This document shows positions 2 to 47,408 of a DNA stretch of 64,000 nt, in pieces (position 1 is the stretch's first letter; every line of letters begins with the position of its first letter). The notes beneath the pieces are model-generated. The model was not told the origin of the DNA. It ran no database searches and saw nothing but the letters and a program-made list of their open reading frames with translations. The stretch is from contig JBHLMN010000001.1 of the NCBI GenBank assembly GCA_048938105.1, positions 288,001 to 352,000 of the forward strand. Reading direction: 5' to 3'. This DNA comes from Promethearchaeota archaeon. Lineage in GTDB: Archaea; Asgardarchaeota; Heimdallarchaeia; Hodarchaeales; Hodarchaeaceae. Made by a program: the position numbers and the translations under genes.

Positions 2-1630
2 ATTAAACGGGTACGGGAGATGATAGAGCTTCCGATGAAACATCCTGAACTTTTTGAACGGTTAGGTATCGACCCTCCAAAAGGTGTTTTATTACATGGG
101 CCTCCAGGTACAGGTAAAACATTACTCGCCAAAGCAGTTGCAAATGAATCTGGAGTGAATTTTGTATCAATTGCTGGGCCTGAAATTATGTCGAAATTTT
201 ATGGGGAGAGTGAACAACGCATTCGTGAGATTTTTCAACAAGCTGAGAAAGAAGCCCCAAGTATCATTTTTATAGATGAATTAGATTCAATTGCAGTAAA
301 ACGGGAAGAAGTCACTGGAGAGGTAGAAAGACGAGTTGTTGCTCAATTATTGGCTTTAATGGATGGTTTAAAGAGTCGGGGTAAGGTTATAGTTATAGGA
401 GCTACAAACCGTCCAAACGCACTCGATCCAGCCTTGCGAAGACCTGGACGATTTGATAGAGAAATTGAAATTGGGGTTCCAGATAGAAATGGACGCTATG
501 AAGTCTTGCTAGTCCATACAAGAGGAATGCCCATTGATGAAGATGTCGATTTAGAAGAGTATGCAGCTAAAACGCATGGTTTTGTTGGAGCAGACATCGC
601 TGCTCTTACAAAAGAGGCTGCAATGCATACCCTTCGCAAAATATTACCAAAGATTGATTTTGATAAACCTCTTACACCAGAGATTCTTTCAAAACTCGTT
701 GTATCAAAGGAAAATTTTGATGAAGCACTTAAGATCACAGAACCCTCAGCTATGCGCGAAGTGCTGTTGGAAATTCCAAATGTCCACTGGAAAGATGTTG
801 GAGGTCTTGAAAGGGTAAAACAACAACTTATTGAAGCTGTAGAATGGCCTATTGCTCACCCTGAGATGTTTAAACGCCATGGTATTACCCCTCCTCATGG
901 AATTCTTCTTTATGGTCCACCTGGGACTGGAAAGACCCTCTTAGCTAAAGCTGTTGCTACTGAAAGTCAAGCGAATTTCATTGCAATTCGGGGGCCTGAG
1001 CTTTTATCCAAATGGGTTGGGGAAAGTGAAAAAGCTGTTCGTGAAGTTTTTAGGAAAGCGAAGCAAGCAGCTCCTTCTATCATTTTTTTAGACGAACTTG
1101 ATGCTATTGCTCCACGTCGAGGAGTATTTACTGGTGGTAGTCATGTCACGGAGAGCGTTGTGAACCAAATATTATCATTACTAGATGGGTTAGAGAGTCT
1201 TCGCGATGTTGTGGTATTGGGTGCAAGTAATCGGCCAGATATGATTGATCCAGCTCTTTTAAGACCAGGGAGATTTGATCGATTACTATTAGTGAAACCT
1301 CCTGATACTAAATCTCGAGAAAAAATACTACAAATCCATACAAGTGGAATGAAGCTAGCATCAGATGTTGACCTTCCTCAACTTGCTAGTGACCTGGAGG
1401 GTTATGTAGGAGCAGATATAGCAACAATCTGTCGTGAAGCTGTTATGATTGGTCTCCGTGAAGATTTGAACACGGAATTAATCGAACGACGTCATTTTCT
1501 TGAAGCGAAAAAAGCAATCCATCCTAGTATCAATGACAAAATTATCAAGGAGTTTGAAGAATTAGAACGTAAACTTTTAGGTAAATCAGAAATTGGACGA
1601 GATTTATTAGGATTAAAAGATTACCTTTAG
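2..1630 (+). CDS. cdc48: CDC48/VCP-family AAA+ ATPase, 5'-truncated (N-domain lies upstream of the window)
   Basis: Two AAA modules (GPPGTGKT twice, IIFIDE/IIFLDE Walker [19 protein letters not shown]). The frame is open back to the window edge ([11 protein letters not shown]). C-terminal KDYL keeps the penultimate Tyr of the HbYX-type proteasome-binding tail. Confidence 0.95.
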
Positions 1631-41981: not shown

Positions 41982-42623
41982 TTGAATCAAAGTGTTCGGA
42001 TTTTCAAGAAGCGCCTTCAAATTTCCCAGAAAAAGTGGAACACAGTTCAGGGCCATTCATTAAGAACAGTAAATACCATTTTAACCATTCTTTCAAGATT
42101 AAATTTGACTCAACGTCCCGATGCTTTCTCAAAAGCGCTATTAACCAGATTTACTGATATTCCAGAACGTTTAGCCTATCATCTTGCTGAATTGATAAAT
42201 AAAAGTATTACAGAGCTATATTCTTACATTGAACAATTCTCTGATATTGTTCGTGAAATGAGAAAAATCGAGAAAATTTTTCGGTTAGATTTCTCTCTAA
42301 TGGCAAAGAAACATGTGACAAAAAGAAATGAAGCATGGCCTCATGATCTTGAGATCATAGAACAAGCTGAAAGGACTATCCAAGAAATTGTTGATATGTA
42401 TGAGACTGAGCTCACACTTAGAAAGCAACTAATAAATGAAATACAGGAATCAGTCTGTTTACAACCCTTAAAGATCACAGTTTACTTGGTTCTTTGGACA
42501 TCAGAAGTGTATATTGAGCCGACCAGGATTCATGAGCTCATTGAGGAATTTACACATGTTGAAAAGGTTTATGAACGTGTGTCTCAACAAGAATCTTATA
42601 ATTCTCTTCCAAAATCTCGCTGA
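41982..42623 (+). CDS. CINP/C1orf109-like helical protein
   Basis: KKWNTVQ, FTDIPERL, WP, MYETELTLRKQLINEI, YLVLWTSEVYIE match remembered CINP/C1orf109 patterns. Confidence 0.7.
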   Translation: MNQSVRIFKKRLQISQKKWNTVQGHSLRTVNTILTILSRLNLTQRPDAFSKALLTRFTDIPERLAYHLAELINKSITELYSYIEQFSDIVREMRKIEKIFRLDFSLMAKKHVTKRNEAWPHDLEIIEQAERTIQEIVDMYETELTLRKQLINEIQESVCLQPLKITVYLVLWTSEVYIEPTRIHELIEEFTHVEKVYERVSQQESYNSLPKSR

Positions 42624-42664: not shown

Positions 42665-44098
42665 CTAACTTGCATGGAAATTTGCTGACTTCAGAATTTT
42701 ATCAATTGATCCATTGCGAAATCCACGAACTAATAATCCCTGAATCTTATCGTTAACAGCGTACTCAGGTTCACCATTCTCTAAAAATTTCCTTACTAAA
42801 TTCATTGAAACCGTTAAGTTATCTCGAGCAGTTTTTTCTAAACCAGCTGAATATATAGCTACACCTCTTAATTGAGAATTTTGTGGCCCTACTTGTGAAA
42901 TAAAGACACATCGTTTGTCTCCTGCAGTTAAATGGTCAGGTGTATGTCCAATTAAGTCAGAGCTCATTGACTGAATAGCAGAGAATAGACCTGTATACAA
43001 ACAGACTTCTTGACCAGCTGGACGGTGACTTGCAAATAAAGGAAGACCACCATCATCGAAAATATAGATCTCCGAATCTGAGAATATCCTGTTCAAAACG
43101 TTAAAACGTTCATCCTCTTCAGAGGAATCTGATAGTATTGCGTCTGTAAAATTTCTTTTGATTGAAGTTTCACATGAAGCAAGTGCTGGAGTAACAGAAG
43201 TTAGAAAATCAGTTGAGGCAAAACTGGGTACAATATTTCCTATTGGATTAGAATCTGTCAGAAAAATTACCACATTATACCCTGAAATGTAAGGGTTGAC
43301 AATATTAGAAAAAATAATCTCAATTTCTTTTCCAAATGTTTTTGCTATTTGTTTGGATGTATTATTCATTACTTTAAGACTAAGAGATTTAACTGAAGTC
43401 ACAGATATAAATATCATCTCTAAACTTTCAAGTTTTTCAGGGATTGTGGCGACTAATCTCTCACCAACCTGGTTAATAACTTCTTCTATTGCATCTTCTA
43501 AGATTGTTGAAGATGAAATTCCATAGTACATACATTTAGATTCACCAAAAATACGAATTAAATTGGAGAATGAAACTCCAAATCCAGGGGATGGAGTAAG
43601 ACTTGAAATTAGGGTATCTAATAAAACAAGAAATTTCCATCTACCTTTTTCAAGATTACAATCAAAATGAAAATAACATTCACCAAATATCTCCCTTTGA
43701 CAGGAGTTTAATCCTGTTCCTGTATCAATGAAAATAGGAACGGTTCCAGAAAATTCTATAGAAGCTAGAATGGCTCCTAAAGCCCTGAAAACTTCCTTTT
43801 CAGAAGAATTAAAAATAAATATTAAAAAATAGGCATTTAAAAGGCTGTAGATCTGTGGTATCATCGTTTCGGAGTCAAAACTGACTACTTGATCACAGAT
43901 ATCAGGAGTGATTGGTGTCCCAGTTGTTATAAGCAGTAGAGGTAAGCGAGACTCACTTTTTGTAGTTAAATAATCATTTAGAAGTTGTAATTCAGCTGTC
44001 AGATCATTTCCAATACATATGATTTTCCCACGTGGCCGAAAATACTCCAATATTGAATTTTTATCAGATTGTGAGCTCAAAGCTAATATCTCTTGCAT
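42665..44098 (-). CDS. Degenerate FtsZ/tubulin-like domain fused to C-terminal longin domain
   Basis: PGFGVSFSNLIRIF..MYYG, IFISVTSVKSLSL, IIFSNIVNP..YNVVIFLT follow the FtsZ C-domain; longin EIYIFDDGGLPLF...LYTGLFSAIQSM; no GGGTG motif. Confidence 0.65.
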   Translation of the reverse strand: MQEILALSSQSDKNSILEYFRPRGKIICIGNDLTAELQLLNDYLTTKSESRLPLLLITTGTPITPDICDQVVSFDSETMIPQIYSLLNAYFLIFIFNSSEKEVFRALGAILASIEFSGTVPIFIDTGTGLNSCQREIFGECYFHFDCNLEKGRWKFLVLLDTLISSLTPSPGFGVSFSNLIRIFGESKCMYYGISSSTILEDAIEEVINQVGERLVATIPEKLESLEMIFISVTSVKSLSLKVMNNTSKQIAKTFGKEIEIIFSNIVNPYISGYNVVIFLTDSNPIGNIVPSFASTDFLTSVTPALASCETSIKRNFTDAILSDSSEEDERFNVLNRIFSDSEIYIFDDGGLPLFASHRPAGQEVCLYTGLFSAIQSMSSDLIGHTPDHLTAGDKRCVFISQVGPQNSQLRGVAIYSAGLEKTARDNLTVSMNLVRKFLENGEPEYAVNDKIQGLLVRGFRNGSIDKILKSANFHAS

Positions 44099-44383: not shown

Positions 44384-46309
44384 ATGACATTTGAAATCAA
44401 AAAATGTGAAGGTTGGGGACGATTGGGACTAGCTTTTGGAAAAGAAGGTTTTATCACACCAAATATAGTTAGACCTTGCTTTTTTAACAATAATTCTTTT
44501 TTTCAACAAACTTCTCTCTTTAACTTTTCAAAATGTCAGGAGAATAAAATTTCTCTGACTTCTAAAAATGATAAGTTAAAAGATAATGTAGATTTCGACT
44601 ATTTCCCTTCATGTTTCATATATCCTTCTTTACAAATGCAAGGAAAGTCTTTGGAGGAGCTTTCTAGTTTTGATGATTTGTTCCCCGTGAACATTACCAA
44701 AAGATCTCACTCAAAAGCATCTTATCACCTTATCCCATGGGATTTACCCACGATATTTTTGAATCGATATGATAAATACTTACAAGCTCTTAATACCCTT
44801 GAAATACCAGAGTTAGGCGAAAAAACGAGATTAATGTTAAATGTCCCATTTACACCTGAAATCCTTGAAACTGAACTCCCACCTCTAGGTTCTTCTGCAA
44901 TTTCAGTGGTAAGTTTAGGAGATATATCATCATTACTAACACATCCGCCACTTTTAATACGATATTTGGTTCATATAAAGTCATGGTTATCCCCTAATAA
45001 GATGTTATACGCTCCTGCAGTTCCTTCAAGTTTTATTCCAATTTTAGTGTACTTAGGTATTGATTTATTTGACTTATTAATTACAGATATGTACTCGACA
45101 AACCCATTTCAAGAATTTAATTTGATTTTCGAACAGAATACGACTAGGAAGTTTTTTTTACAAGTTCTTCATTTCACTAGAGAAGCCATAGAAACAAACA
45201 AATTGAGGGATTTAACAAGGATTTTCGCAAATTCCTTTCCTTATTTAAAGGTATTATTAAGAATAAGTGATAAACAGATTCCACTTGAAAAAGGAACTCC
45301 TCTTTACGGATCTCGAACCCTTTACTGCACTGATGAAACTGATTTCACCCGTCCAGAGGTGACACGATTTCGTGAAAGGGTAAGAACTCGTTATAGCCCA
45401 CCTTCTCACACTACTGGGATTATCTTCCTCCCTTGCTCAGCTAAGAAGCCGTATTCACGATCGAAATCACATCAGATTTTTAGAAAAGTAATCCGTCGAA
45501 ATTTAAAGGGAAAACGTTTCTCAGTTGGAGAAGTAATCCTGACAAGCCCCTTAGGTGTTGTACCACGAAACCTTGAGTACTCTTTTCCAGCAGCTCATTA
45601 TGATATTCCAGTTACAGGAGAATGGAGTCAAATTGAGAAAAACCATTTAAAAAAAGATCTTGTATCTTTTTTGGACAAAGTCAAATCATCTATTCCGCTT
45701 GTGGGTTATGTTAAAGGAATAGAACGTGAGATACTAAAGAAAGTATGTAACCAGCTCAATCGTTTGATATACCTTTTACCTCAAGATGTAACATCGTTAT
45801 CTTCGAAAGAATCTCTCGAAGAATTCTCAGCCATTCTTCAAGAGGTTTCACTTAAGATTTCCTACAAGCCAAAAATTCCTAACCGACTCGTGTTTCTTAG
45901 AACAATTGCTGATTTCCAATTTGGGAAAGGGATTGGGTCAGTTCTCATTCCGGATCATGTTAAAATATATGGTCGAAAAGAACTTGGAATTAGAGTTCAA
46001 CTTAATAACAGACATCACCTCACATTTCGTCCAGAAACAGGTTATCTAACTTTATCTCTGACCGCAGGAAAGTTGTTATTAAACCACAGTAACAATTTAG
46101 TAACATTTGATGGTCAGAAAATCATTGGTTCTACAATATTCTCAAAAGCCATAATCAAGGCAGATCCAGAGATACGTCCAAATGATGAAGTTCTTATTAT
46201 AGATAGAAATGGGGAATTATTGGCTGTTGGTGTAGCACACCTACCAGGAAATCTTTTAGTTGAAATGAAAAGAGGTAAAGGGGTTACTATTCGTCAAAAG
46301 GTGAAGTAA
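44384..46309 (+). CDS. arcS: Archaeosine synthase subunit ArcS (TgtA2) with PUA domain
   Basis: LPCSAKKPYSRSKSH, TSPLGVVPR, PAAHYDIPVTGEW, ADFQFG, C-terminal PUA. Confidence 0.92.
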   Translation: MTFEIKKCEGWGRLGLAFGKEGFITPNIVRPCFFNNNSFFQQTSLFNFSKCQENKISLTSKNDKLKDNVDFDYFPSCFIYPSLQMQGKSLEELSSFDDLFPVNITKRSHSKASYHLIPWDLPTIFLNRYDKYLQALNTLEIPELGEKTRLMLNVPFTPEILETELPPLGSSAISVVSLGDISSLLTHPPLLIRYLVHIKSWLSPNKMLYAPAVPSSFIPILVYLGIDLFDLLITDMYSTNPFQEFNLIFEQNTTRKFFLQVLHFTREAIETNKLRDLTRIFANSFPYLKVLLRISDKQIPLEKGTPLYGSRTLYCTDETDFTRPEVTRFRERVRTRYSPPSHTTGIIFLPCSAKKPYSRSKSHQIFRKVIRRNLKGKRFSVGEVILTSPLGVVPRNLEYSFPAAHYDIPVTGEWSQIEKNHLKKDLVSFLDKVKSSIPLVGYVKGIEREILKKVCNQLNRLIYLLPQDVTSLSSKESLEEFSAILQEVSLKISYKPKIPNRLVFLRTIADFQFGKGIGSVLIPDHVKIYGRKELGIRVQLNNRHHLTFRPETGYLTLSLTAGKLLLNHSNNLVTFDGQKIIGSTIFSKAIIKADPEIRPNDEVLIIDRNGELLAVGVAHLPGNLLVEMKRGKGVTIRQKVK

Positions 46310-46310
46310 A

Positions 46311-47408
46311 TTGCCTCAACGAAGAAACACACTACTAGCCTCAAGGATTTTCAATCTACGTCAAGAATACCTCAATAAACGTGCTCCAGATTTTCAAGCA
46401 AAAATATGGAGTAGTACAATCGAAACGAAAGAAAGTATTGTAATAACTATAGTAATCCCAACACGAGGATGTAGTTGGGCTCTTTCAGAGAGCGGAGGAT
46501 GTTCAGTCTGTGGTTATGTGAATGATTCCTCTTATAATCAACCTATCCCAACCCAAAAAATTCTAGACACAATTGATCATTCTTTAAATCAGGTTGACTC
46601 TGAAAAACCCATTGAATTTAAGCTATATAATTCAGGGAGTTTTTTTGATGAAAAAGATGTTCCACAGAGATTACGCTCACAGATTATCGATCTTATAAGA
46701 AATAGAAATGAAATTATTAAATTCGGTGTTGAATGTAGGCCAGAATATCTCATAACTAATCAAATAGTTGTTAAAGAAACAAAAAAAATACTAGAACCCA
46801 TTAAACTAGAAATCGGAGTAGGTCTTGAAAGCTCGAACAATACTATTATAACAGACTGTTGGAATAAAGGATTTTCTATTGAAGATTATAAAAAAAGCGT
46901 ACAAATACTTCGAGCACTAGATGTCCGAATTAAAAGCTATATTTTTATAAAGCCTCCCTTTTTAACTGAGGCAGAGGCAATTATTGATGCAATAAAGACA
47001 GCTCATGACGCAGTGAGATTTGGAACTGATGTGATTTCATTTAATCCTTGTAATGTTCAAAATGGAACACTTGTCAACCTTTTACAAAAACAAGATCGTT
47101 ATCAACCTCCTTGGTTATGGTCTGTGTTATATATTGTAAAAATTATTAGACAGGATTTTCCAGATCTTGAAATTATTTGTGAACCTACCGCAGCAGGAAA
47201 AAAAAGAGGAACACATAACTGTGGGAAATGTGATACGAGAGTTTCTGATCTTATTTCTAAAGTTATTAATAAAGAACAGATAAATGAAAATCTATCTACA
47301 ATCTGTTCTTGTTTTCTAACCTGGAAATTATTAGTGGAAACACCCATAGAAGTGTTTAGATCAAGAAATCTATCGAAACTGCGACAATTGAATCCATTAA
47401 ATGAATGA
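46311..47408 (+). CDS. Radical SAM enzyme RaSEA for archaeosine synthesis
   Basis: TRGCSWA...GGCSVCGY, YNSGSFFD, ECRPE, KPPFLTE, YQPPWLWS, RGTHNCGKCD; abuts arcS. Confidence 0.92.
   Translation: MPQRRNTLLASRIFNLRQEYLNKRAPDFQAKIWSSTIETKESIVITIVIPTRGCSWALSESGGCSVCGYVNDSSYNQPIPTQKILDTIDHSLNQVDSEKPIEFKLYNSGSFFDEKDVPQRLRSQIIDLIRNRNEIIKFGVECRPEYLITNQIVVKETKKILEPIKLEIGVGLESSNNTIITDCWNKGFSIEDYKKSVQILRALDVRIKSYIFIKPPFLTEAEAIIDAIKTAHDAVRFGTDVISFNPCNVQNGTLVNLLQKQDRYQPPWLWSVLYIVKIIRQDFPDLEIICEPTAAGKKRGTHNCGKCDTRVSDLISKVINKEQINENLSTICSCFLTWKLLVETPIEVFRSRNLSKLRQLNPLNE

Follow-up and report, generated by a model that had tools for sequence, protein, structure and literature searches.

A probable pre-duplication homologue of CINP and C1orf109 encoded by a single Hodarchaeales gene

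RESULTS

The CINPL gene and its surroundings

The DNA analyzed here, referred to as the window, is a stretch of 64,000 nucleotides from a Hodarchaeales (Asgard) genome of 5.85 Mb that is 99% complete. An open reading frame on its plus strand (41982..42623) starts with a TTG codon and specifies a protein of 213 amino acids, which we call CINPL. The gene stands alone, with a minus-strand gene on each side. Its closest relatives (53-90% identity), mostly labelled Hodarchaeales or Heimdallarchaeota, share the start position and the length of about 213 residues and carry the precomputed Pfam family PF15011. The reading frame is a real gene. A promoter scan of a type that does not cover archaeal promoters gave nothing above chance, and the finding of no longer or fused forms of CINPL is in itself weak evidence. 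The features relevant to this study are as follows.

41982..42623, plus strand: CINP/C1orf109-family gene (Asgard CINP-like, CINPL) with an all-helical 213-residue product, from reading frame, Pfam, profiles and Foldseek
42036..42038, plus strand: W19, kept in 31/32 Asgard, 23/24 CINP-group and 25/25 C1orf109-group sequences
42141..42173, plus strand: residues 54-64, comprising a loop and the first part of helix 2; L54/I60/L64 align to human C1orf109 L63/L69/L73, and F57 to F66
42336..42341, plus strand: WP, residues 119-120, taken from the first-pass annotation; poorly kept across the family
42396..42422, plus strand: helix-4 motif MY..E..L[RK], residues 139-147, common to the Asgard, CINP and C1orf109 groups; L146 aligns to the interface residue L162 of CINP
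42480..42518, plus strand: C-terminal motif Y-L-x-x-W-x-x-E-[PV]-Y-I-E, residues 167-179, retained in CINP and degraded in C1orf109; V167/V170 align to CINP S181/S184
2..1630, plus strand: 3' part of a Cdc48/VAT paralogue of 766 residues (G000:C52:287330-289627), proposed as a partner in the first-pass annotation

The convergent neighbour (42665-44098, minus strand; 477 residues) is kept in all 19 Hodarchaeales loci fetched and has a weak match to FtsZ_C (E 0.08). At 44384-47408 (plus strand) lies a gene for an ArcS-like archaeosine synthase (DUF5591, PUA, TGT_C2), followed by a gene that looks radical-SAM-like by its translation, and this pair is conserved in Hodarchaeales.

CINPL is homologous to both CINP and C1orf109

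The first-pass annotation had described the protein as a combination of motifs from the two eukaryotic paralogues CINP and C1orf109, a description borne out by the searches reported here. All motifs that it quoted are present in the reading frame, with FTDIPERL at residues 57-64, WP at 119-120, MYETEL..RK at 139-147 and YLVLWTSEVYIE at 168-179. The human motifs that it had cited are also correct: FPDLKERL of C1orf109 matches PDB chain 9gwj_A, and MYRKELLLK and YLSMWLHQPYVE of CINP match chain 8cih_A. The parallel drawn for WP did not hold: the corresponding region has WP in 3/32 Asgard proteins and in 2/24 sequences of the CINP group. It was dropped as a family motif, with W119 kept in 22 and P120 in 17 of 73 Asgard alignment rows.

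CINPL matches PF15011 (CA109-like, C1orf109-like) over residues 10-156 with 43.8 bits (E 3.3e-11), above the curated cut-off of 27 bits. In searches of the PDB, a Hodarchaeales profile ranked human CINP first (E 1.4e-4), and a wider Asgard profile retrieved human CINP with an E value of 5.7e-10 and human C1orf109 with 0.17 over residues 17-161. Group-to-group comparison with HHalign gave 99.7% for Asgard against CINP (E 2e-25, score 164) and 99.6% for Asgard against C1orf109 (E 1e-23, score 150); the two eukaryotic groups matched each other at 99.2% with a score of 125, below that of the Asgard group with either. The AlphaFold model of CINPL is all helical (pLDDT 85), and the first ten ranks of a Foldseek search with this model are all CINP and C1orf109 chains (best E 1.1e-3; TM 0.58-0.68 for the best four). 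Comparisons of the kind the first-pass annotation had called for (HHpred, Foldseek) thus return significant matches to both proteins.

An exhaustive fold search ended in a tie between CINP (Z 15.3, rmsd 3.0, 167 residues aligned) and C1orf109 (Z 15.2, rmsd 3.4, 188 aligned). Because designed helical bundles reach a Z score of 14.1 in the same search, just below these values, it is the sequence profiles and not the fold that carry the proof of homology. The proximity of designed bundles, the failure of a single-sequence phmmer search of the PDB with CINPL to retrieve any CINP or C1orf109 chain, and an Atlas shape search that yielded unrelated bundles only could all be taken to mean that the likeness is a chance similarity between helical bundles. 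This explanation is ruled out by the Pfam, profile and HHalign results and is further opposed by motifs that run the full length in consistent register and by an independent published phylogeny (see below), leaving it a negligible probability. CINPL is, with near certainty, homologous to both CINP and C1orf109.

The two sides of the human interface map onto one archaeal chain

A profile search of 1.84 billion representatives recovered Asgard proteins together with about 90 near-full-length proteins that look eukaryotic. The latter sort into two groups, labelled by us and checked on only a handful of named members: C1orf109/OPNR, with amphioxus C1orf109, plant At5g43822, Pilobolus and Pharyngomonas, and CINP, with gar CINP and Piromyces. 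Scored by halves, the N-terminal part (residues 1-112) was closer to the C1orf109 group in 29/32 Asgard proteins, and the C-terminal part (residue 113 to the end) was closer to the CINP group in all 32. For CINPL itself, using separately aligned groups, the N-terminal half scored 54.7 bits against C1orf109 vs 36.1 against CINP, and the C-terminal half 19.0 vs 41.5 bits.

In the human heterodimer, C1orf109 residues L63, L69 and L73 are required for binding CINP, the interacting residues on the CINP side are L162, S181 and S184, and each protein is monomeric alone, forming a dimer only when the two are together (PMC11055677). Helices 1-2 and loop 1 of C1orf109 meet helix 4 and loop 4 of CINP (10.1101/2025.11.07.687187). 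In our alignments the C1orf109 side corresponds to L54, I60 and L64 of CINPL and the CINP side to L146, V167 and V170. Of 73 Asgard rows, 64 retain L54, 66 retain F57 and 72 retain W172, while position 60 is I, L or V throughout and position 146 is L or V in 66 rows; the positions aligned to CINP S181 and S184 (167 and 170) are variable, with A/T/N/L and T/V/I, respectively. As judged from these alignments, both halves of the human heterodimer interface are retained in one archaeal chain. Among the eukaryotic proteins, F57 is lost from the CINP group (3/24 keep it) and W172 is eroded in the C1orf109 group (11/25). We infer that a self-complementary homomer, once duplicated, would be expected to leave such a complementary pattern of losses, and the monomeric state of the isolated human proteins is likewise as expected if each had lost one half of the surface. 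The conserved hydrophobic residues of interface type could instead serve the core of the bundle.

Copy number and phylogeny

The genome carries one CINPL gene; the next match in a genome search has an E value of 0.09, and there is no second paralogue. Nearly all positive genomes likewise have one family match, and the five with two appear to owe this mostly to fragments at contig ends. In an IQ-TREE phylogeny (LG+C20+F+G4; 83 rows, 196 columns), calculated after near-duplicates had been removed along with about 35 rows, most of them redundant or on long branches, all 32 Asgard rows separate from all eukaryotic rows with a support of 99/96. This tree is unrooted and without outgroup, and its eukaryotic rows were chosen by the Asgard profile. 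A branch supported at 97/84 sets the C1orf109 rows apart, and of the 26 CINP-labelled rows 24 group together (100/97). The eukaryotes attach between the group that contains the Hodarchaeales and the other Asgard archaea, consistent, if the root lies within Asgard, with the published tree, for which the text of PMC12962969 reports that eukaryotes cluster with Hodarchaeal CINPL (UFBOOT 99).

The median patristic distance from Asgard is 4.84 to CINP as well as to C1orf109, and CINPL groups exclusively with neither in the best tree. The phylogeny that the first-pass annotation had asked for sets the Asgard proteins apart from both paralogues, and leaves the two alternative groupings standing in AU tests, with p values of 0.09 for Hodarchaeales plus CINP and 0.08 for Hodarchaeales plus C1orf109. 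Given the mosaic of halves, the presence of both interface sides, the single copy and the split between Asgard and eukaryotes, a self-complementary protein from before the duplication is likely. We thus consider it probable that CINPL is a pre-duplication co-orthologue of both CINP and C1orf109, as had been proposed.

CINPL might alternatively be a plain CINP orthologue that acts as a monomer, with C1orf109 a faster-diverging eukaryotic derivative. The large difference between the profile E values for human CINP and human C1orf109, the CINP-like C-terminal motif, the AU result for Hodarchaeales plus CINP and the label used in the text of PMC12962969 are in line with this. Against it stand the C1orf109-like Pfam match above cut-off, the nearness of the N-terminal half to C1orf109, the equal distances to the two groups and a best tree with both paralogues on one side, so that we regard it as improbable.

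Distribution and gene neighbourhood

The Asgard profile finds the family in 129 of 399 genomes, two of these matches being weak. Positives comprise the Hodarchaeales families f1 (19/20) and f2 (2/2), f17 of the Hermodarchaeia (17/19), f20 (5/5), f11 of the Thorarchaeia (80/89 when pooled with two unlisted families) and one genome each in f10, f15 and f28; the family is thus found in Hodarchaeales, Thorarchaeia, Hermodarchaeia, Asgardarchaeia and further families. The same profile had no match in f14 (0/135), f27 (0/14) or, within the same class, f4 and f7 (0/12 each); f14, f4 and f7 are examples of the many Asgard groups that have several Cdc48s and gave no match. A match of 350 residues in L087 was excluded as a probable coiled-coil false positive. 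Two divergent members lie on short contigs, P0118 (L097:1984-2592) and P0135 (L098:109-636); the former stands after six small genes, two of them with weak zinc-ribbon matches.

Neighbours of the family gene are kept within a lineage and differ between lineages, with SAM synthetase and HTH-CBS genes in Thorarchaeia, phosphomutases in Hermodarchaeia, and RNA cyclase and HypF in f20. No Cdc48 or ribosome-assembly gene is among the conserved neighbours.

Candidate Cdc48 partners

The host has four full Cdc48/VAT genes, at C52:287330, C9:116982 (minus strand), C65:3072 and C9:144481 of G000. The first-pass annotation had suggested the copy at the start of the window as the partner, a proposal that we reject on grounds of distance and phylogenetic profile: the gene is 40 kb away, is one of four paralogues and belongs to a clade that does not co-occur with CINPL. 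In a Cdc48 tree of 102 sequences from 36 Asgard genomes, which resolves several old groups, its group is absent in the Thorarchaeia sampled and in f10, f15, f20 and f28, all carrying the family gene, and present in f5, f6, f8, f12, f13, f14, f18, f19, f23, f25 and f27, all without it. A search for Cdc48 N-domains in 150 genomes agrees with the tree on this point. In four congeneric genomes the two genes are likewise 40-45 kb apart, and we read this as ordinary synteny. The window copy also has a Gly/Ser-rich insertion of about 30 residues in its N-domain (L090:2331-2954), and a similar one marks the whole of its clade within Asgard.

Only a near-universal and weakly supported Cdc48 group, represented here by the intein-bearing gene G000:C9:113269-116982, is shared by all positive lineages, so that no dedicated ATPase can be singled out by co-occurrence. 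All sampled genomes with the family gene have at least two Cdc48s. Three host Cdc48s compared with the PDB came out closer to VAT and p97 than to SPATA5, by scores that do not discriminate, and with N-domain profiles SPATA5 fell outside the top 60, so that no SPATA5-like paralogue can be named. Complex prediction for two CINPL chains with the near-universal N-domain (score 0.15, mark 0.32) is no evidence either way. If CINPL does act on a Cdc48, the near-universal paralogue, and not the window copy, would be the likeliest partner. Its gene (L091:3270-6983, minus strand) holds a LAGLIDADG intein of about 500 residues in the first ATPase domain; the orthologues in G138 and G101 are without it. 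Two other Cdc48 genes (L092:2576-6236 and L093:2814-6474) each lie between genes that, from their translations, appear to encode a small heat-shock protein and a proteasome-assembly-chaperone-like protein.

Substrate tails

The human adaptors bind residues 85-163 of RLP24 (C-terminal helices) and residues 452-474 of GTPBP4 (PMC12019325). Counterparts of these docking tails were not found in the host genome, which has one L24e with a frame of 67 residues and a Nog1 frame of 384. L24e is single copy in the Asgard genomes searched, at about 60-76 residues in Hodarchaeales and most Thorarchaeia, and no second, Rlp24-like L24e was found in 150 genomes. With such tails missing, the eukaryotic pre-60S docking mode is not transferable as is, and a CINPL substrate gripped by RLP24- or GTPBP4-type tails is unlikely. 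In Hermodarchaeia (L231-L234; G011, G060, G066, G043), L24e carries a Lys/Pro-rich C-terminal tail of 65-80 residues, in contrast to the L24e of about 65 residues in most other Asgard archaea; this is reminiscent of eukaryotic eL24, which has a long tail.

DISCUSSION

That Asgard archaea have this family has already been published, as the first-pass annotation had guessed, and finding it again is ordinary. The available text of PMC12962969 (Nat Microbiol 2026; preprint 10.1101/2024.07.03.601958) describes CINP homologues in five Asgard clades and none in other prokaryotes; this is the same family, and the full-length CINPL studied here falls in its Hodarchaeales clade. In the main text of that paper C1orf109 appears only in a reference title, and the main text holds no discussion of 55LCC, the heterodimer interface, the oligomeric state or a Cdc48 partner. 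What is new relative to that main text is the link to C1orf109 and, as read from the alignments, the retention of both interface halves.

The explanation that we tentatively favour is a helical adaptor that dates from before the duplication, associates with itself and would serve the N-domain ring of a Cdc48. The ancestral gene, from before the eukaryotic duplication, would persist as CINPL, a single-copy co-orthologue of CINP and C1orf109 (plant OAP1/OPNR). The helix-1/2 loop of one copy (L54/F57/I60/L64) would pack on the helix-4/5 surface of the next (L146, 167-172), and chains so joined would form a T-shaped homodimer or a small ring, which would sit on the N-domains of the Cdc48/VAT hexamer and feed it substrate. 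After duplication, C1orf109 would have kept the loop and CINP the C-terminal surface, yielding an obligate heterodimer. Taken by itself, self-association of CINPL appears moderately likely from the paired surfaces. A role as Cdc48 adaptor, suggested by the only known role of the family, stays somewhat short of an even chance. The most specific version, in which a homo-oligomeric ring (dimer to tetramer) caps the Cdc48/VAT hexamer as a substrate funnel and is the direct ancestor of the 55LCC/OPENER lid, with the heterodimer produced by duplication and complementary interface loss, is rather unlikely as a whole.

The strongest competing explanation is that CINPL is a pre-duplication homologue that associates with itself or another partner and is unrelated to Cdc48, the link to SPATA5/AFG2 and pre-60S particles having arisen only in eukaryotes after Cdc48 expansion. 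We give this a substantial, if minority, chance, as no dedicated Cdc48 clade co-occurs with the gene, its neighbours vary by lineage, the known substrate tails are missing and yeast Drg1 functions without such adaptors (PMC12019325). Conversely, both paralogues are known, in animals and plants, chiefly as cofactors of SPATA5/CDC48-like ATPases (PMC11055677, PMC12332008), which suggests that the ancestor already had that role, and the sampled genomes with the gene all have more than one Cdc48 on offer.

The nearest known system is the human CINP-C1orf109 (AIRIM) heterodimer of SPATA5-SPATA5L1 (55LCC; PDB 9gwj, 8rhn, 9lgo), whose adaptors are likewise helical bundles of about 200 residues. CINPL has W19, MY..E..L[KR], the loop residues of C1orf109 and the C-terminal motif of CINP in common with the human pair, but it is the product of one gene instead of two, is 12-18% identical and is without the CINP-type N-terminal tail. 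55LCC employs the ATPases SPATA5 and SPATA5L1; the comparison of three host Cdc48s with the PDB, by scores that do not discriminate, identified no SPATA5-specific ATPase, and no Cdc48 clade tracks the gene. The RLP24 and GTPBP4 tails on the 55LCC side also have no counterpart in its genome. In Arabidopsis, the OPENER complex consists of OPNR, OAP1 and OAP2 with CDC48D and CIP111 (PMC12332008). Its adaptors assemble as a heterotrimer, for which a central pore is predicted, located at the nuclear envelope and in mitochondria (PMC12332008). Both 55LCC and OPENER draw on distinct adaptor paralogues, unlike the archaeon with its single subunit type. The Asgard profile recovers OPNR (At5g43822-like) proteins, and these fall in the C1orf109 clade. 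A preprint claims the adaptors CINP and C1orf109 as eumetazoan novelties (10.1101/2025.11.07.687187); the recovery of fungal, plant and heterolobosean family members by the Asgard profile argues against this.

Should CINPL form such a ring on Cdc48, it would be an adaptor with this fold for the N-domains of a prokaryotic Cdc48. The protein is small and soluble and the candidate N-domains number four, which makes the question directly testable. A single chain that carries the C1orf109 loop together with the CINP surface would be a clean candidate for the evolution of a heteromer from a homomer, in a case that touches a disease-linked ribosome-maturation machine.
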